Source: an uncultured archaeon
GTDB lineage: Archaea > Aenigmatarchaeota > Aenigmatarchaeia > GW2011-AR5
Direction of reading: 5' to 3'
Length of the DNA: 22,842 nt
Assembly (NCBI GenBank): GCA_964373695.1
Contig: CAYJVT010000012.1
Location: forward strand, 1-22,842
Positions 7,686 to 22,842 of the stretch are shown piece after piece. A program made the translations under genes and the position numbers. Below the pieces are notes generated by a model that had not been told where the DNA came from, searched no databases, and saw nothing but the letters and a program-made list of their open reading frames with translations. Position 1 is the first letter of the stretch. Each line of letters starts with the position of its first letter.

Positions 7686-7792
7686 GCTGGGATAGCCAAG
7701 CTTGGTCTACGGCGCAGACCGGGAAACCGGGCGTAAGTTTGCTAAACCTGTGAGATTAACTTCTCGCGAGGGTTCAAATCCCTCTCCCAGCG
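7686..7792 (+). tRNA. tRNA-Ser(GCT) with a 19-nt BHB intron (7718-7736) at position 29/30
   Basis: Acceptor GCTGGGA/TCCCAGC; T arm GAGGG-TTCAAAT-CCCTC; long variable arm; splicing restores CAGGT-TTGCTAA-ACCTG. Confidence 0.9.
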
Positions 7793-16480: not shown

Positions 16481-16900
16481 CTTAACAGCATACAGATATG
16501 GATGGCGGCATGCAAAATATTTTGCATTCCGGTATTGGCGGGTTAAGTTTGGCGTCTTAAAATATGCAGCTAGTCTGCAGTATGTTCTACGGAAACTTAC
16601 TCCCATTCATGTTGATCCAAGATCAATCCTGAGGTAAGCGTTTGTCCTGGAGAAAGCGGCATCGCCGCCCCGTGACAGGACTCATCCAACCTCCAGGAAA
16701 ACAATGAAGATGTAATACTCATATTACATCAGATGAAAGCGCGAGTAGGTAAAACTCTATCAGTGGTAGGGACGAACAATTAATGTGCAAACCCAAAAAT
16801 TCCGGTTGATCCCGCCGGAGACTACTGTTATCAGGATTCGATTAAGCCATGCGAGGTGACTGCCGCAAGGCAGACCGCACTGCTCAGTAACACGTAGTTA

Positions 16901-16930
16901 ACATTTTCTCTTTTTGAGAATTTGGCTAAA
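16901..16930 (+). other. 16S BHB intron, 30 nt (~E. coli 130)
   Basis: Central helix TAGT/GCTA, bulges TA^A and AA^A; restores GTTA|ACCTGCCC. Confidence 0.8.
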
Positions 16931-17067
16931 ACCTGCCCTTAGGAGGAGGATAATCCCGGGAAACTGGGCGTAATACTCCATAGGCGATAATTGCTGGAAG
17001 GCATCTTCGCTGAAAGCTTTTGCACCTAAGGATGGGACTGCGGCGGATTAGCTTGTTGTTGAGGTAA

Positions 17068-17096
17068 AGACTGAAGCGAAAGCTTCTTTCGCCGAT
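17068..17096 (+). other. 16S BHB intron, 29 nt (~E. coli 263)
   Basis: Central helix AGGT/GCCG (3 of 4 pairs); inner hairpin GAAGC-GAAA-GCTTC; restores GAGGTAA|TTGCTCAAC. Confidence 0.65.
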
Positions 17097-17159
17097 TTGC
17101 TCAACAAGGCTATAATCCGTACGGGTCGTGAGAGCGATAGCCCGGAGATGCACTCTGAG

Positions 17160-17300
17160 ATTCGCAGAGCAGTCATAACCAGCATACAAATGGTGTTGAG
17201 GCACCGATGATACAGCTCTGAACTTCCTGGAGAACTCTGTTCTCCGGGATCTTGAAGAAACCGTAGATTTCTTCAAAGATTTCTGTTCTGCGAACAGAAA
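17160..17300 (+). other. 16S BHB intron, 141 nt, non-coding (~E. coli 326)
   Basis: Central helix TCTG/CAGA; 12-bp intron stem TTCGCAGAGCAG/CTGTTCTGCGAA; restores CTGAG|ACA. Confidence 0.9.
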
Positions 17301-17441
17301 ACATGAGTGCAGGCCCTACGGGGCGCAGCAGGCGCGAAAACTTTGCAATGGGCGAAAGCCTGACAAGGGAATCCTGAGTGACATCGCATCGCGATGTCTT
17401 TTTTCGACTCTAAAGAGGTCGAAGAATAAGTGGTGGGCAAG

Positions 17442-17482
17442 GATATCTTTGAGGTAATTTAAATCCTTCAAGATGTTGCCAT
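17442..17482 (+). other. 16S BHB intron, 41 nt (~E. coli 510)
   Basis: Central helix GGCA/TGCC, bulges AG^G and AT^A. Confidence 0.88.
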
Positions 17483-17495
17483 ACGGTTGCCAGCC

Positions 17496-17526
17496 TTTTT
17501 AGACGCTGCGGTGTCTAAAACTGGAA
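17496..17526 (+). other. 16S BHB intron, 31 nt (~E. coli 523)
   Basis: Central helix CCAG/CTGG; 10-bp stem TTTTAGACGC/GTGTCTAAAA; restores CCAGCC|GCCGCGG. Confidence 0.92.
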
Positions 17527-17730
17527 GCCGCGGTAATAACCGCGCCACGAATGGTAGTCACGTTTATTTGGCCTAAAGCGTCCGTAGCTGGCTTGATAAG
17601 TCTCTGGTGAAACCCGGCAGCAAACTGTCGGAACGGCTGGAGATACTGTCAGGCTTGGGACCGGGAGAGGTCAGAGGTACTTCATGGGTAGGGGTAAAAT
17701 CCTTTAATCCGTGGGGGACCACCTGTGGCG

Positions 17731-17773
17731 GAAGCTTTTCAGAAAACCTTTCAAAATGGAAAGTTTTCCACAT
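17731..17773 (+). other. 16S BHB intron, 43 nt (~E. coli 727)
   Basis: Central helix GTGG/CCAC; restores GTGGCG|AAGGCG. Confidence 0.88.
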
Positions 17774-17827
17774 AAGGCGTTTGACTGGAACGGGTCCGAC
17801 AGTGAGGGACGAAAGCGTAGGGAGCGA

Positions 17828-18662
17828 TCGGGAAGAAGACTAAACTTTAAATGTGATAGAGTCTAAGAGGTAATATGAGGATTAGACAACTTGTCTTACT
17901 ATCAGCCTATTTGCTTACAGATGGGGGAATATCAGCAAGAAACGACAGAGATTGGACGATTTATTTCAGAAACAAAGATGAAGAAATAATAAAATCGTTT
18001 CAAGAACAATTGTTTGCTTGCTGTGGCAAGAATGGTTATATAACTAAAAGAAATGATGGAACAGATTTCGTAAGATTACATTCAAAAAAACTTGCGGAAG
18101 AAATGTTTCAACTTTCTCAATCTTATAGAACAAAGGCTTGCAACACATTTCCCGTATGTAGGCATCTGAACGGCAAAATGTCATCTTGTAAATTATTTGG
18201 TACTCTCATGATAGATGGCATTGAATACCCAAAAGCAAAAATACCTGATGATGTATTTGAATCGAAAAAACTTGCAAAAGAATTCCTTAAGATATATGCA
18301 AGCTGTGATGGTGGTATTTCGGTTGTGCCTGCTAAAAACAAAAAAAATTCTTTGTTTTTAGTCAGAAAGGTTTTGTTTTCAGTAAAGCATCCAATACTGA
18401 ATCAGCAGATTACGGATTTGCTAAAAAGCTTAGGATATTTGCCATCACAATACAAAGACCAAATAAGATTAGTTAAGAAGAAAGATATAGCTAAATTCAG
18501 CAAAGAAATAGGTTTTATAGAAGGCGCAAAAATTTCAAATGATTCGAAATTCCTTTCTAATCTTGAAAAAAATCTTATACTTAGTAAAGTTGTCGAATCT
18601 TATGATAATCCTAAAACCCTCTTAGACTTTTTACATAAAACAAGGTCTTCTTCCCGGCTCAT
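17828..18662 (+). mobile_element. 16S BHB intron, 835 nt (~E. coli 781), homing-endonuclease encoding
   Basis: Central helix GAGC/GCTC; 12-bp stem CGGGAAGAAGAC/GTCTTCTTCCCG. Confidence 0.92.
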
Positions 18663-18672
18663 TCGGGATTAG
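17875..18672 (+). CDS. Intron-encoded double-motif LAGLIDADG endonuclease
   Basis: LLSAYLLTDGG and FLKIYASCDGG; stop codon is in the downstream exon. Confidence 0.88.
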   Translation: MRIRQLVLLSAYLLTDGGISARNDRDWTIYFRNKDEEIIKSFQEQLFACCGKNGYITKRNDGTDFVRLHSKKLAEEMFQLSQSYRTKACNTFPVCRHLNGKMSSCKLFGTLMIDGIEYPKAKIPDDVFESKKLAKEFLKIYASCDGGISVVPAKNKKNSLFLVRKVLFSVKHPILNQQITDLLKSLGYLPSQYKDQIRLVKKKDIAKFSKEIGFIEGAKISNDSKFLSNLEKNLILSKVVESYDNPKTLLDFLHKTRSSSRLIRD

Positions 18673-18674
18673 AT

Positions 18675-18710
18675 ATATTCGGTATCTAATCAAATTACCG
18701 GGTACTAAAA
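18675..18710 (+). other. 16S BHB intron, 36 nt (~E. coli 793)
   Basis: Central helix TTAG/CTAA; 9-bp stem TATTCGGTA/TACCGGGTA; restores TTAGAT|ACCCCGG. Confidence 0.88.
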
Positions 18711-18811
18711 ACCCCGGTAGTCTACGCTGTAAACGATGCCCACTTGGTGTCGCCGAACCTTCGGGGTTCTGCGGTGCCGTAGCGAAGGTGTTAAGTGGGC
18801 CGCCTGGGGAG

Positions 18812-18877
18812 AAAAAGGTTGTAGTTTTAAATAAGTATACAAACAAGAATAGTTAAGGTCTGCAATCTTTTCCCAAA
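18812..18877 (+). other. 16S BHB intron, 66 nt (~E. coli 890)
   Basis: 12-bp stem AAAAGGTTGTAG/CTGCAATCTTTT; central helix GGGG/CCCA; restores GGGGAG|TACG. Confidence 0.85.
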
Positions 18878-18895
18878 TACGACCGCAAGGTTGAA

Positions 18896-19724
18896 CTATA
18901 GGTGGCTCATATGGATGAATCGGAATTGAAGGAACTCACACTAAGATTTCAAGAATCGATTAGGCAAAGCAATGCAGAAGAATTTATAAAACAAAACCCA
19001 AAATCTATTCTTGCACTGAGATTATCTTTGGGATTAAGCCAAAAAGATTTTATAAGAAAAGTAAAAAATAAAATTTCTCAGGTAGCTCTTATAAAACACG
19101 AGAAAGGAAGGAGCTCTAGAATAAATTCAGTATTGCTCAAAGAAGTTGTCAAACTAGTACCGAACTTCATTGACATAAATTTGGTGATTGAAAACCATAA
19201 AAAATTTGATTCGATGAAAAAAGGAATTCATATGACGACCGAAAGAGCAAGAAAATTAAACGAATTATGGCAGAAAAAAACCAAAAGGTCTCAACGACAA
19301 GATTGGGGAAAAAAAGGCGCACTCAAAACAAATTCAAGCCAGAGATTGACAGAACAGGAAAAAAAGGTCAAAGAAATTCTGGATAGGATGAATCTTGAAT
19401 ATAAAATACACCATCAAATAAAAACAAAAAGTGTCGATATGAACATAGATTTTGTTTTGTTCAATAAAAATAAGCCTATATGTTTTATAGAAGTAAGTGA
19501 GCGTAAGCATGATTTGCAGATTTTATGTCAGGCTTATGCTTACAGATGCAGGATTTTAAAGGAAAATTATCCCTGGTCTAGGGCAGGAATAGTAATTAAT
19601 GATGTGCCTTTTTCAGCGAAAAAAATAATAGAAAAGGAATTTGATTTTATGCTTAATACCAATTCAATTCATAATCTTAGTGAGTTCCTTCAATTCTGAA
19701 ACACATGAGTCAACTATGCAACAT
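18896..19724 (+). mobile_element. 16S BHB intron, 829 nt (~E. coli 908), encoding an HTH + PD-(D/E)xK-like protein
   Basis: Central helix GTTG/CAAC; intron stem TATAGGTGGCTCAT/ATGAGTCAACTATG (13 of 14 pairs). Confidence 0.88.
18911..19699 (+). CDS. XRE-type HTH + PD-(D/E)xK-like nuclease (putative non-LAGLIDADG homing endonuclease)
   Basis: LRLSLGLSQKDF..ISQVALIKHEKG HTH; TEQEKKVKEIL..NIDFVL..CFIEVSE nuclease-like motif; paralogous to 20527-21240. Confidence 0.72.
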   Translation: MDESELKELTLRFQESIRQSNAEEFIKQNPKSILALRLSLGLSQKDFIRKVKNKISQVALIKHEKGRSSRINSVLLKEVVKLVPNFIDINLVIENHKKFDSMKKGIHMTTERARKLNELWQKKTKRSQRQDWGKKGALKTNSSQRLTEQEKKVKEILDRMNLEYKIHHQIKTKSVDMNIDFVLFNKNKPICFIEVSERKHDLQILCQAYAYRCRILKENYPWSRAGIVINDVPFSAKKIIEKEFDFMLNTNSIHNLSEFLQF

Positions 19725-19768
19725 ACTTGAAAATCAACGGAATTGATTAGCTGGTTTTCAATCAGCTA
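19725..19768 (+). other. Second 44-nt BHB intron at the same ~908 site, in tandem with the 829-nt intron
   Basis: Central helix GTTG/CAGC forms after removal of the large intron; stem TTGAAAATC/GGTTTTCAA. Confidence 0.6.
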
Positions 19769-19779
19769 ACTTAAGAGAA

Positions 19780-20425
19780 AGAAGATAACCCGATAGCACA
19801 CTTAAATAGAGTTTTCGGCAATCAATTATACATGAAATTGCATATCTGCTCGGAGCATTGAGAGATTCGACTATAGATGCACGAAAAGGAAAAAACTATG
19901 AAATCAAAATAGCCCAGAAAGAGGCTAGATGGCTTTTCGTCATCCAAAGGATATTTCTCAAGCATTTTGGCGTAGAAGGCAAAATAACACAACATTCCGA
20001 AGGTGCCAGGATATTGAGAATTGGCGGAAAAGATATCGTGAATAAAATAATCGGAATCTCCCAAATGAAAATCCCTCAAGAAAATTGGAATACCCCCGAT
20101 GTAATAAAAAATCAGAGTAATTCGGTACAACTTGAGTACGTGAAAGGGTTTTTCGATGCTGAAGGCGGTCTTCCAAAAGATCCCGAAAATGCATCGCAAA
20201 AATACATATGCTTCGGTCAGAAAAACAAGGAATCTTTAGAATTTGTCAGAAACATCTTGATAAAAAACGGATTTAATCCGACAAACTTGACAAGATGTGG
20301 CGGAGTCTGGGAATTCCGAGTTACTAGGAAAGCAGAAATGGTAAAATTTGCTTCTAAGATAGGAAGCCTTCATGCAGACAAACAGCGAAAACTCAAAATT
20401 CTACAGCGGGTTTATTTTCCTCAAA
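19780..20425 (+). mobile_element. 16S BHB intron, 646 nt (~E. coli 919), LAGLIDADG encoding
   Basis: Stem GAAGATAACCCG/CGGGTTTATTTTC; central helix AGAG/CTCA; exon resumes at TTGGCGGGGGAGCAC; the 5' boundary is less certain. Confidence 0.7.
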
Positions 20426-20520
20426 TTGGCGGGGGAGCACTACCAGGGGTGGAAAGAATGCAAGTCGCCAAAGACTTATTTTCGAGCGAACAAATCTATA
20501 AATACTACAACCGACTATAA
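19810..20520 (+). CDS. Intron-encoded double-motif LAGLIDADG endonuclease; no in-frame ATG before motif 1; frame runs through the next exon
   Basis: IAYLLGALRDS and YVKGFFDAEG motifs; frame open from 19810. Confidence 0.75.
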   Translation, partial: SFRQSIIHEIAYLLGALRDSTIDARKGKNYEIKIAQKEARWLFVIQRIFLKHFGVEGKITQHSEGARILRIGGKDIVNKIIGISQMKIPQENWNTPDVIKNQSNSVQLEYVKGFFDAEGGLPKDPENASQKYICFGQKNKESLEFVRNILIKNGFNPTNLTRCGGVWEFRVTRKAEMVKFASKIGSLHADKQRKLKILQRVYFPQIGGGALPGVERMQVAKDLFSSEQIYKYYNRL

Positions 20521-21257
20521 GCGAATATGCCAAAAACAAAATTTAGCGACGATGAATTCCAGAAACTTTATAGAGAAGTCCAACATAAAACAAAAAATTT
20601 CTCTATAATAGAACCTGAATTAATATGGGAAAATCCCAATTACATGAAAGTTTTCAGAATGATATGCGGCAGAAGCCTTGCAGAAATGGGAAATATTTTG
20701 AACAAAACACATGCAACTATTGCCCAGTATGAGCGTGGTGCAATAAAAAACATACCCATAAAAGAAGCAGAAAAAATTTCTCATATAATAAGCGATGAAT
20801 TGCCGCAAAACAAATCACTAGAAAATGCAATAAGAAATATGCATAAATTCAGGGAACTTTCAAATGGGGGATATGTTCAGGCGTTCAAAAGAGCGGAAAA
20901 GGCAGAACTGACAAATCAAGAAAAAAAGATAAAGGAAATTCTCGAAAAGAAAAAAATAGATTTTGAGCCGCACAAAACACTGGATACATCAATAGGAAAA
21001 TTAAATTTTGATTTTTGGCTGCCTGATAACAAAATTATGATAGAATGCACTGAATCTGTATCCAAACATAAAGCAGAATCTCTAGGATTCCGTGCATTGA
21101 AGCTCAAAGATAAAATTAAATGTAAAGCAATAGCCGTTATACCATCCAATGTTTCGGATGGAATCATGAGAAGACTGTGCGATTATGATTACGTTGTTTT
21201 TTCAACGGATTTGTCAAAGCTCGAGAATATTGTCAAGTAGGGCTTCGTTCTCACCAA
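20454..21257 (+). mobile_element. 16S BHB intron, 804 nt (~E. coli 946), encoding an HTH + PD-(D/E)xK-like protein
   Basis: Central helix GGTG/CACC; stem AGAATG/CGTTCT; restores GGTGGA|GGCTGCGG. Confidence 0.9.
20527..21240 (+). CDS. XRE-type HTH + PD-(D/E)xK-like nuclease (putative non-LAGLIDADG homing endonuclease)
   Basis: FRMICGRSLAEMGNILNKTHATIAQYERG HTH; TNQEKKIKEIL..NFDFWL..IMIECTE. Confidence 0.75.
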   Translation: MPKTKFSDDEFQKLYREVQHKTKNFSIIEPELIWENPNYMKVFRMICGRSLAEMGNILNKTHATIAQYERGAIKNIPIKEAEKISHIISDELPQNKSLENAIRNMHKFRELSNGGYVQAFKRAEKAELTNQEKKIKEILEKKKIDFEPHKTLDTSIGKLNFDFWLPDNKIMIECTESVSKHKAESLGFRALKLKDKIKCKAIAVIPSNVSDGIMRRLCDYDYVVFSTDLSKLENIVK

Positions 21258-21301
21258 GGCTGCGGTTCAATTGGATTCAACGCCAGGAACCTTACCTGGG
21301 A

Positions 21302-21925
21302 AATTTAGAAGTTCGAAGTCAAGGAAGGTAAGGTTTAATATTCTGGAAGAACCATGTTCTACCATGCGAGCAAAAATAAACATCAAGAATCTATCAGAAA
21401 TAGAAAAAGGCTATTTGTGCGGATTCTACGTAGGAGATGGAAACATATTCATATATCCCAAACAATGGATATACAGAGTTCGTTTCCATACATTTGTAAA
21501 TGAAACACAAATACAACAAAAGCTTATTTTGATTCTTGGCAAAATTTGCAATAACACAAAAAGCTATAAAGCAAAAAACAACACTATTGTTATAGAAACG
21601 CATGCAAAAGACCTCATAAAATTTTTTGATGATATAGTAACAAAGAGCGGAATAAAAACGACAAATAAAACATCACGAAATTTTAATTTGGGTTTCATTG
21701 AGGGTATGGTAGACAGCGACGGATATGTCCAGAGAAATTATGCAGAAATAACAACAATGAATCCAAAACTAAAAAACAATCTGGTATCATTGTTGAAAAT
21801 GCTAAAAATTGAGCATAATTTAAGAACATTCAAATCGCATCTAAGTAAAAACACCGGTTATAGGATTGGTTTTTCACTGAATTGTAAACTTTTCTATCCC
21901 ATTAAATGGATTTCTAAATCCAGAC
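21302..21925 (+). mobile_element. 16S BHB intron, 624 nt (~E. coli 990), LAGLIDADG encoding
   Basis: Central helix CTGG/CCAG; 9-bp stem ATTTAGAAG/TTTCTAAAT; restores CTTACCTGGGA|AGACAGC. Confidence 0.92.
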
Positions 21926-21939
21926 AGACAGCAGAATGA
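21364..21939 (+). CDS. Intron-encoded double-motif LAGLIDADG endonuclease
   Basis: YLCGFYVGDG and FIEGMVDSDG motifs; stop codon is in the exon. Confidence 0.9.
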   Translation: MRAKINIKNLSEIEKGYLCGFYVGDGNIFIYPKQWIYRVRFHTFVNETQIQQKLILILGKICNNTKSYKAKNNTIVIETHAKDLIKFFDDIVTKSGIKTTNKTSRNFNLGFIEGMVDSDGYVQRNYAEITTMNPKLKNNLVSLLKMLKIEHNLRTFKSHLSKNTGYRIGFSLNCKLFYPIKWISKSRQTAE

Positions 21940-22140
21940 GGGTCACTCTGAAGGGGTTACCTGACAAGCTGAGAAGTGCTGCATGGCCGTCGTCAGTTCG
22001 TGCTGTGAAGTGTCCTGCTAAGCCAGGAAACGAACGAGACCTGCGCCTCTAGTTGCTAATCCTGTCTCCGGACAGGATGCACTCTAGCGGGACCGCTGCT
22101 GCTAAAGCAGAGGAAGGAGCAGGCTACGGCAGGTCAGTAT

Positions 22141-22769
22141 ACTTTGAAAGAAGAAGCACTTCTCCACTTTTCACTTTTCAGGTGCTCTTGGCAATATCAT
22201 ATAAGACATCAATATAGAATTTTGATATGAATCCATATTTGGCAGGTATTATCGTAGGAGATGGACATATAGAGAAAAACGGAAGAGTAGTTATTGCAAG
22301 CAGCAATAAAAACTTTATAGAAACTATAAACGACCTCATAAAATTTAAAACGTCTGTTTTCTATGACAAATCTGCAAATGTATGGAAAGTATCGTCCAAT
22401 TCAAAAGAATTCTTGGAAAAAATGGAAAATATTGATGTCAAGCGCGGAAACAAAACGACGGCAAATATGAATATAAAACTCAATAAAAATGAAATGCTCT
22501 TGTTTGTTTCCGGGTTATATGATGCCGAAGGGCACTTTGAAATCAATGAAAGATACTACAAAATTAGGATAAAAATGAAGAATGAATCAATAATGGAATT
22601 GGTGTATAATTTCCTTATTGACAACGGATACGAACCTAGAATTTGTAGAAAAGACGGGTGCATTGTTGTTGATATAAACAAACAGCAAAATGTGACAAAA
22701 TTCGTTTCGAATTTCATGTTAATGCATCCAAAGTGGAGAAGGCTTGAAAACCTTCTTTCAGGGGCTGAG
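22141..22769 (+). mobile_element. 16S BHB intron, 629 nt (~E. coli 1205), LAGLIDADG encoding
   Basis: Central helix CAGT/GCTG; 12-bp stem CTTTGAAAGAAG/CTTCTTTCAGGG; restores CAGTAT|GGCCTAAAT. Confidence 0.92.
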
Positions 22770-22838
22770 GGCCTAAATTTCCAGGGCTACACGCGGCCTA
22801 CAATGCGTAGGACAATGGGATGCAACACCGTAAGGTGA
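22227..22838 (+). CDS. Intron-encoded double-motif LAGLIDADG endonuclease; frame reads on into the exon
   Basis: YLAGIIVGDG and FVSGLYDAEG motifs. Confidence 0.9.
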   Translation: MNPYLAGIIVGDGHIEKNGRVVIASSNKNFIETINDLIKFKTSVFYDKSANVWKVSSNSKEFLEKMENIDVKRGNKTTANMNIKLNKNEMLLFVSGLYDAEGHFEINERYYKIRIKMKNESIMELVYNFLIDNGYEPRICRKDGCIVVDINKQQNVTKFVSNFMLMHPKWRRLENLLSGAEGLNFQGYTRPTMRRTMGCNTVR

Positions 22839-22842
22839 AGCC

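Follow-up and report, generated by a model that had tools for sequence, protein, structure and literature searches.

A DPANN archaeon with 17 putative bulge-helix-bulge introns in its probably functional 16S rRNA gene

The 22,842-nt stretch of DNA analysed here (the window) comes from an uncultured archaeon of the order GW2011-AR5 (Aenigmatarchaeota) and makes up the entire contig C12 (GenBank CAYJVT010000012.1) of a 1.02-Mb genome assembled in 60 contigs and 91% complete. From position 16799 onwards it carries a heavily interrupted 16S ribosomal RNA (rRNA) gene, which is very probably the single, functional 16S rRNA gene of this DPANN archaeon. The insertions that interrupt it, 14 in the window (13 of them well supported) and 17 in the gene as a whole, are in all likelihood archaeal introns of the bulge-helix-bulge (BHB) type. 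The archaeal small subunit (SSU) rRNA model of Rfam, RF01959, placed the start of the gene at 16799 (+) and matched further pieces at 18688-18800 and 21925-22150. Region 16700-22842 was compared with the 16S of five relatives by spliced dynamic-programming alignment, and the boundaries were then refined by BHB geometry. With positions numbered by alignment to Escherichia coli K-12 rrsB, this resolved the gene in the window into 15 exons and 14 insertions (Table 1). Introns account for 4830 of its 6044 nt (79.9%) and have a G+C content of 33.7% vs 54.9% for the exons. Eight of the insertions are 30-141 nt long without an open reading frame (ORF) of 50 aa or more, all but the doubtful one at K-12 position 263 being of the hairpin kind, and the six others, of 624-873 nt, are ORF-bearing.

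Once spliced in silico, the exons give a sequence of 1214 nt that aligned end to end with the 16S genes of relatives at 82-86% identity, with no indels at 12 of the 14 junctions; the junction at K-12 position 263 was 4 nt short and that at 890 was 2 nt long. An earlier sequence-only reading of this DNA had proposed in silico splicing and alignment to SSU covariance models as a check; alignment of the spliced sequence to relatives and E. coli showed a contiguous 16S restored across those 12 junctions. That reading had described BHB-type introns taking up about 4828 of 6044 nt (~80%) with micro-exons of 13, 12, 18 and 11 nt; its coordinates were correct within one base, its intron share is borne out, and the micro-exons measure 13, 12, 19 (18 by pure homology) and 11 nt. 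Its count of 15 introns was one too many, since the alignment yields 15 exons and 14 insertions. The gene does not end with the window. The last 55 nt of C12 (22788-22842) are an exact match to the first 55 nt of contig C27, on which the 16S runs on, interrupted by three further insertions, and reaches its 3′ end at 632, so that the entire gene comprises 17 insertions and 18 exons over ~6.6 kb, with a mature RNA of ~1462 nt. This locus is the sole 16S in the 91%-complete genome.

Table 1. Coordinates of the 16S rRNA gene, its insertions, micro-exons and intron-borne genes, and of the mini-intron cassette. Positions refer to the window unless a contig or site is named; helix lengths are those of the BHB motif.
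Feature	Position	Strand	Length	K-12 site	Remarks
16S rRNA gene	16799-22842	+		1 to ~1278	15 exons, 14 insertions; RF01959 and spliced alignment; continues on C27:1-632
Intron 1	16901-16930	+	30 nt	after 129	hairpin mini-intron; 4-bp central helix, 3-nt bulge
Insertion 2	17068-17100	+	29-33 nt	263	helix-11 hairpin loop; weakest motif
Intron 3	17160-17300	+	141 nt	after 326	homology boundary coincides with BHB; central 4 bp, inner 12 bp
Intron 4	17442-17482	+	41 nt	after 511	canonical BHB at homology boundary; central 4, outer 2, inner 7 bp
Micro-exon	17483-17495	+	13 nt	512-523	530-loop region and 515F primer site; 13/13 identical to relative G013
Intron 5	17496-17526	+	31 nt	after 523	central 4 bp, inner 10 bp at homology boundary
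Intron 6	17731-17773	+	43 nt	after 727	BHB at homology boundary; central 4, outer 3, inner 3 bp
Intron 7	17828-18662	+	835 nt	after 781	central 4 bp, inner 13 bp; LAGLIDADG gene
ORF of intron 7	17875-18672	+	265 aa		LAGLIDADG_3, 30.3 bits; stop codon in exon 8
Micro-exon	18663-18674	+	12 nt	782-793	790-loop region
Intron 8	18675-18710	+	36 nt	after 793	central 4 bp, inner 9 bp
Intron 9	18813-18876	+	64 nt	after ~890	central 4, outer 2, inner 11 bp
Micro-exon	18877-18895	+	19 nt (18 by homology)		
Intron 10	18896-19768	+	873 nt	after 908	central 4 bp, outer 3 bp; gene with helix-turn-helix and nuclease-like part
ORF of intron 10	18902-19699	+	262-265 aa		distant homologue of intron-12 ORF; stop inside intron
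Micro-exon	19769-19779	+	11 nt	909-919	
Intron 11	19780-20425	+	646 nt	after 919	outer 3 bp, inner 8 bp; LAGLIDADG gene
ORF of intron 11	19810-20520	+			LAGLIDADG_3, 48.3 bits; runs through exon 12 into intron 12
Intron 12	20454-21257	+	804 nt	after 946	central 4 bp, inner 6 bp
ORF of intron 12	20527-21240	+	237 aa		N-terminal helix-turn-helix, predicted C-terminal PD-(D/E)XK-like fold
Intron 13	21302-21925	+	624 nt	after 990	central 4, inner 13 bp at homology boundary; LAGLIDADG gene
ORF of intron 13	21302-21939	+			LAGLIDADG_3, 43.8 bits; whole intron is one open frame
Intron 14	22141-22769	+	629 nt	after 1205	central 4, outer 4, inner 12 bp at homology boundary
ORF of intron 14	22227-22838	+			LAGLIDADG_3, 50.0 bits
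C27 insertion	C27		51 nt	after 1317	canonical BHB; central 4 bp, outer 2 bp, inner 8 bp
C27 insertion	C27		247 nt	after 1362	relaxed motif
C27 insertion	C27		~31 nt	near 1494	weak motif
Cassette	16S site 326 (window 17160-17300)			326	this genome and two relatives
Cassette	16S site 531			531	eight relatives
Cassette	16S site 908			908	one relative (G009)
Cassette	23S, C27:6113-6159				this genome

The assignment to BHB introns rests first on the geometry of the junctions, which were scored for the motif of the archaeal splicing endonuclease, i.e. two 3-nt bulges around a 4-bp helix with the cut after the second bulge nucleotide (tRNA position 37/38). Among the 14 homology-consistent junctions, 13 showed all four central pairs, 3-nt bulges and at least 3 flanking pairs, and nine junctions additionally had an inner helix of 6-13 bp. 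The chance per site under random placement was 0.3% for central plus flanking pairs and 0.008% when an inner helix of at least 6 bp was added, and junctions shifted by 1-12 nt reached the same two levels at 0.7% and 0.08%, respectively. In six introns the boundary drawn by homology only was the exact BHB position, and in four more the shift between the two was neutral for the product. The best BHB among the introns of the window is that of intron 14, which also carries a LAGLIDADG gene. Intron 1, found only in this genome among the 20 compared, has an inner helix of 2 bp, a T/T internal loop and 5 bp, and its excision restores the sequence of the relatives.

Several observations weigh against this assignment or against parts of it. 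The outer exon-exon helix closing the 3′ bulge is only 0-1 bp long in seven introns, so that many of the motifs are of a relaxed and not a canonical form. A contiguous inner helix is missing from intron 10, and intron 11 forms only three of the four central pairs; at site 919 the introns of relatives show the same geometry as intron 11, often with the same A:A mismatch. The minimum-energy fold of intron 8 is a competing structure in which the intron pairs with both exons, not the BHB. The canonical cut of intron 9 leaves 2 nt extra relative to the relatives, and moving the cut one base at either end, as seen in the relative G026, brings it into agreement with them. Insertion 2 is the most doubtful case. 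Its central helix includes two G-U pairs, with an outer helix of 6 bp and no inner helix, and its BHB-predicted product falls 4 nt below the length of the relatives. It sits in the hairpin loop of helix 11, where it folds as an extension of the helix, and it is present in this genome only, of the 20 compared. That insertion 2 is an expansion segment retained in the mature rRNA, and not an intron, is therefore a possibility to be kept in mind, albeit the less likely one; it is the only insertion that fits what is expected of such a segment, namely a position at a variable helix tip, extension of that helix and no splice motif.

The BHB assignment of the other insertions was further supported by comparison with relatives. 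An intron-free consensus served as the reference for aligning twenty 16S loci of the order, and insertions of at least 20 nt were counted, giving 144 insertions at ~48 site clusters, with maxima per gene in relatives of 15 (G001 and G007), 12 (G016) and 11 (G022). A BHB was found for 114 of the 144 using a wide search window, and about a quarter to half of these could be due to chance, so that a site-by-site comparison is preferred. At the 11 shared sites (326, 511, 523, 727, 781, 793, 890, 908, 919, 946 and 990), cut positions were identical across genomes, the 3′ tetranucleotide of the intron was complementary to the exon and the inner helices were divergent in sequence yet paired. Specifically, intron 3 has counterparts at the same site in five relatives, with an inner stem that is common to introns at other rRNA sites, and intron 4 is common to G001 and G021; the site of intron 6 is occupied in eight relatives with differing inner helices and that of intron 8, likewise in eight, with covarying ones. 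Relatives carry introns of 29-42 nt at 781, with the junction geometry of intron 7, and of 32-50 nt at 906-908. Introns of 803-804 nt occupy site 946 in G001 and G021 as intron 12 does here, and G001 has at 990 an intron of 111 nt with the same ends as intron 13. At 523, where introns of 30-31 nt occur in four genomes, 100% of the cells were paired and 6 of 10 inner pairs were changed on both sides, vs 20-46% paired in slid controls, in a test comprising four sequences only. This suggests that the BHB motif is maintained by selection, via compensatory changes between homologous introns. The BHB type put forward in the sequence-only reading thus agrees both with the position of the motif, exactly at the homology-defined junctions, and with its preservation by covariation. 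As a separate observation, intron 8 includes GGTATCTAATC, which is reverse-complementary to the junction of the spliced exons, GATTAGAT/ACC (the slash marks the splice point), and also TACCGGG, complementary to the downstream exon.

The genome encodes the enzymes that removal of such introns would call for. A single endA gene was found, on contig C2, encoding 194 aa that match TIGR00324 with 113 bits (cut-off 59.6), and the best PDB match of the protein is the Methanocaldococcus jannaschii homotetramer 1A79. Relative to 1A79, the catalytic Tyr and His of EndA are set further apart by six inserted, lysine-rich residues, KKGPKS, and this insertion aligns gap-free to a longer loop of the Nanoarchaeum equitans alpha subunit (3IEY_A). 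This C-terminal loop, termed L3, is reported for alpha4-type EndAs of DPANN lineages, in association with heavily disrupted tRNA genes (PMC5829648), and we infer that it may give EndA a broad specificity here. The RtcB ligase is encoded on contig C31. Its match (C31:6291-9113) is split into profile positions 1-51 and 48-426 by ~1.45 kb within one 989-aa frame, as would be expected for an intein-containing RtcB. In the proposed mechanism, the last six nt of each upstream exon would pair in the precursor with the 3′ end of the intron to form the 4-bp helix with its two 3-nt bulges, a single homotetramer-type EndA would cut after the second nucleotide of each bulge, and RtcB would ligate the exons and circularize the intron, yielding a 16S rRNA of ~1462 nt from a gene of ~6.6 kb.

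The close spacing of the motifs had been taken in the sequence-only reading to imply ordered splicing. For the neighbouring introns 511/523, 781/793, 890/908 and 908/919, however, the cores (4-bp helix plus both bulges) lie on different nucleotides of the micro-exons, with the outer helices alone of introns 10 and 11 overlapping by 2 nt, and when 17425-17545 was folded as one piece, introns 4 and 5 both formed their helix-bulge cores. Since the cores do not overlap and those of introns 4 and 5 can fold jointly, the structures would not impose an order, and the proposed one is not required. The order may nevertheless be kinetically relevant, since an exon of 11-13 nt freed on both sides before ligation could be lost. 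A related scenario is that the insertions are excised at the bulges and the exons are left unligated, the mature SSU rRNA then consisting of separate pieces. Precedents are the rRNAs of some bacteria, organelles and protists, which occur in fragments. Here, however, the ribosome would have to retain, non-covalently, fragments of 11-13 nt that stem from the 530-loop, 790-loop and 920 regions, the genome encodes RtcB, and the same kind of rRNA intron is spliced in Thermoproteales and Aeropyrum (PMC4496867 and work cited therein), so that this scenario is quite unlikely.

The retention discussed for insertion 2 could be extended to the short insertions in general, some or all of which would then be expansion segments; for most of them this is very unlikely, since the other short insertions interrupt conserved strands (511, 523, 727, 793 and 890) with an exact BHB geometry that covaries between genomes. 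Also highly improbable is a locus that arose by chimeric assembly or is a pseudogene in decay, with the working 16S elsewhere. The gene does lie at a contig end in an assembly of 60 contigs that is 91% complete, but no second 16S was found in the genome, and the 3′ end follows on C27 via the exact 55-nt overlap, then the spacer tRNA and the 23S. Moreover, the exons are 96-100% identical to those of G001 and 82-86% identical to those of more distant relatives without indels, and the same introns occur at the same sites in independently assembled relatives, as shown for the 803-804-nt intron at 946 in G001 and G021. Group I introns with LAGLIDADG genes are known in DPANN rRNA, mostly in 23S and at SSU 1498 (PMC6125680), but that the long ORF-bearing insertions are self-splicing introns of this kind is barely credible, as no Rfam group I or group II model matched in 16500-22842 even at E up to 10 and neither the window nor the 23S locus gave a group I match at gathering score, a BHB-type central helix lies exactly at the junction in each of the six long insertions (four with an inner helix of 6-13 bp), their ORFs leave little sequence for a ribozyme core, and the eight insertions of 30-141 nt are too short for a group I core.

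With the insertions taken as probable BHB introns, the comparison with relatives also indicates how quickly they come and go. The exons of G001 are 96-100% identical to those of the present gene, yet the intron set differs at 11 or more sites. G001 lacks introns at 129, 263, 326, 908, 919 and 1205, has others at 161, 664, 722, 752 and 1197, and carries 29 nt at 781 (835 nt here) and 111 nt at 990 (624 nt here). Near-identical exons with differing intron sets imply that introns are gained and lost, and their ORFs decay, at a fast pace compared with the divergence of the rRNA. The high insertion load is no peculiarity of this genome but a habit seen across the order. The intron-free 5′ part of the G002 16S was considered as a recent loss and rejected, the gene being only 72% identical. 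This 16S, on contig C21 of a genome labelled as the same genus, thus shares 72% identity with the exons of the window vs 96-100% for G001, and the contig may be mis-binned. A genome-wide scan for mini-BHB motifs recovered the known introns of C12 plus a few matches in coding regions and was not specific enough for a blind count.

Some of the ORF-less introns may have moved between sites. A family of mini-introns with a 12-13-bp inner stem, TTYGMAGAR...YTCTKCRAA, was present at four places in both rRNA genes (cassette in Table 1), and its copies at 908 in G009 and in the 23S retain a CAGA tetranucleotide that is a perfect fit to site 326 and a mismatch at their own site. The fit to 326 together with the mismatch at the present site suggests transposition between rRNA sites. 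Tentatively, and with the odds still against it, ORF-less mini-introns in this order could themselves be mobile, transposing between rRNA sites and genes by a route that needs no homing endonuclease, such as reverse splicing or recombination. If true, such transposition could explain both the 17 introns in one 16S and the 11 or more site differences from the near-identical G001, and the lineage would offer a natural system for the study of intron gain by protein-spliced introns.

The six long introns carry two kinds of gene. Four ORFs, in introns 7, 11, 13 and 14, matched the Pfam family LAGLIDADG_3 (PF14528, cut-off 22.5 bits). All four lack an intron-internal stop codon, in contrast to both ORFs of the second kind, in introns 10 and 12, which end within their introns. 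When read as circularized introns, three of the LAGLIDADG frames reach a stop 5, 5 and 29 codons past the joint and that of intron 13 (208 codons) is open all round. In the ORF of intron 11 (region 19810-19860) the first LAGLIDADG motif, IAYLLGAL, lies upstream of the first ATG, GTG or TTG (19858), so that the gene would either use a non-standard start codon or have lost its start. The ORFs of introns 10 and 12 are collinear with each other at 24% identity and matched no nuclease family in Pfam or NCBIfam. About 20 unannotated homologues were found for each, labelled Candidatus Aenigmarchaeota, and for the intron-10 ORF one homologue, which lies on an independently assembled contig of 391 kb, is followed by a LAGLIDADG_3 ORF as in the window. 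At the N-terminus, HTH_3 matched 14 of 17 family members, indicating an XRE-type helix-turn-helix (HTH). An AlphaFold2 model of the intron-12 ORF (mean predicted local distance difference test score 87.8) gave Foldseek matches almost all of which were PD-(D/E)XK nucleases, with weak scores (best E 4.6e-4; 1Y88 with a template modelling score of 0.41 over 102 columns); these included Can2, AF1548, NucS, several restriction enzymes and the catalytic domain of I-Bth0305I. D162 and K182 are invariant in the family and E173 nearly so. PD-(D/E)XK nucleases can act as homing endonucleases, an example being I-Ssp6803I. On the strength of fold and genomic context, the ORFs with an HTH and a predicted PD-(D/E)XK fold are candidate homing endonucleases and probably a new family of intron-borne nucleases. 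This family would constitute a type of homing endonuclease not found reported for BHB introns, and such enzymes would have long, conserved rRNA targets. The candidate endonuclease genes of either kind probably act on DNA to spread the introns and keep them in place.

Comparable introns have been described in Thermoproteales, Desulfurococcales and Aigarchaeota by Jay & Inskeep 2015 (PMC4496867), with 13 archaeal 16S intron loci at 374, 548, 722, 781, 803, 901, 908, 919, 978, 1093, 1205, 1213 and 1391, hairpin introns of <50 nt and, in Pyrobaculum, micro-exons of 7-8 nt between BHB introns. The present gene shares with these the junction motif, the sites 781, 908, 919 and 1205, the three size classes (hairpins of <50 nt, remnants, and introns of 600-900 nt with LAGLIDADG), the very short exons between neighbours and the interruption of universal primer sites. 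Since hairpin introns and 7-8-nt spacing are described there, both the kind of element and the micro-exon layout were already known. The sequence-only reading had named 781, 908, 919 and 1205 as recognized hot spots, and all four are indeed on the published list; the sites it did not count among the hot spots (near 130, 263, 326, 510, 523, 793, 890, 946 and 990) are all absent from that list, as is 727, the tenth such site of the window and one missing from its own enumeration. The present case differs from those of PMC4496867 in having 17 insertions in one gene, at least 10 of them at unlisted positions, vs 13 loci overall, in the ~48 site clusters of its order, in a host that is a small-genome DPANN archaeon and not a thermophilic crenarchaeote, and in two introns with a non-LAGLIDADG nuclease-like gene.

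Likenesses extend to other lineages and molecules. The tRNA genes studied by Kaneta et al. 2018 (PMC5829648), with several introns each and relaxed BHB motifs, involve the same enzyme and motif, and heavy disruption of tRNA genes is found in those DPANN lineages whose single alpha-type EndA has the L3 loop; unlike there, the same logic is applied here 17 times in one rRNA gene. The archaeal group I rRNA introns of Nawrocki et al. 2018 (PMC6125680) share DPANN hosts, rRNA genes and LAGLIDADG genes with the present introns and can co-occur with BHB introns in one gene, but their sites are LSU 1923/1931/2500/2593 and SSU 1498 and no group I match was obtained here. According to Tsurumaki et al. 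2024 (PMC11270868, with Brown et al. 2015 as cited there), an rRNA gene of bacteria of the candidate phyla radiation (CPR) can contain up to 16 insertions of at least 100 bp, and those of a 16S can add up to 5.6 kb. The CPR cases resemble the present one in their ultra-small symbiont-type genomes, many rRNA insertions, LAGLIDADG in many of these, removal from the transcript and the hiding of hosts from amplicon surveys. The CPR insertions are described there as group I- or II-like or unclassified, whereas here the motif is the archaeal BHB and a protein enzyme would remove the introns; nearly half of the insertions here are hairpins of 30-64 nt, under the 100-bp threshold of the CPR survey.

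Taken at this strength, the gene appears to be a real and extreme case of a known intron kind, in a new lineage and at many new sites. The density would be a record, with 17 insertions in one gene vs 13 loci for all archaea in the sole survey found, and in the full-text literature covered (most subscription journals lie outside that coverage) no account was found of such a density, of these sites or of the HTH-nuclease ORFs in archaeal 16S. Some of the new sites may resemble group I intron sites of eukaryotic SSU rDNA (516, 531, 943, 956, 989 and 1199). The gene raises the questions of how ribosomes are made in a ~1-Mb cell that would need ~27 protein-catalysed splices, including the joining of 11-13-nt exons, and of how such introns spread. 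There are also consequences for detection. By the usual primer positions, intron 5 splits 515F, with intron 4 just upstream of it, intron 8 splits 806R, introns 10 and 11 split 907/926R and the insertion near 1494 splits 1492R. Since universal primer sites are interrupted by introns, amplicon surveys should miss these organisms. Such genes are likewise fragmented or missed by standard rRNA and tRNA finders, with three Rfam pieces for the 16S and zero ARAGORN tRNAs anywhere in the window.

The absence of ARAGORN tRNAs is consistent with multiply interrupted tRNA genes. Rfam tRNA matches with internal insertions were found in the window at 7686-7792, where the D region is longer by 27 nt and the variable region by 14 nt, and at 9482-9536. 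Duplex folding of the 16S flanks was uninformative as to a processing stem, with an energy of -112 vs a shuffled mean of -109. On C27:1-9031 the 16S is followed 3′ by a spacer containing a 168-nt tRNA match and then by a 23S whose 5995 nt include ~10-11 insertions that add up to 3.1 kb. The 3′ end of the 23S (model positions 2593-2973) occurs again at C42:1289-1694, where it may represent part of a second gene copy or another path through the assembly.

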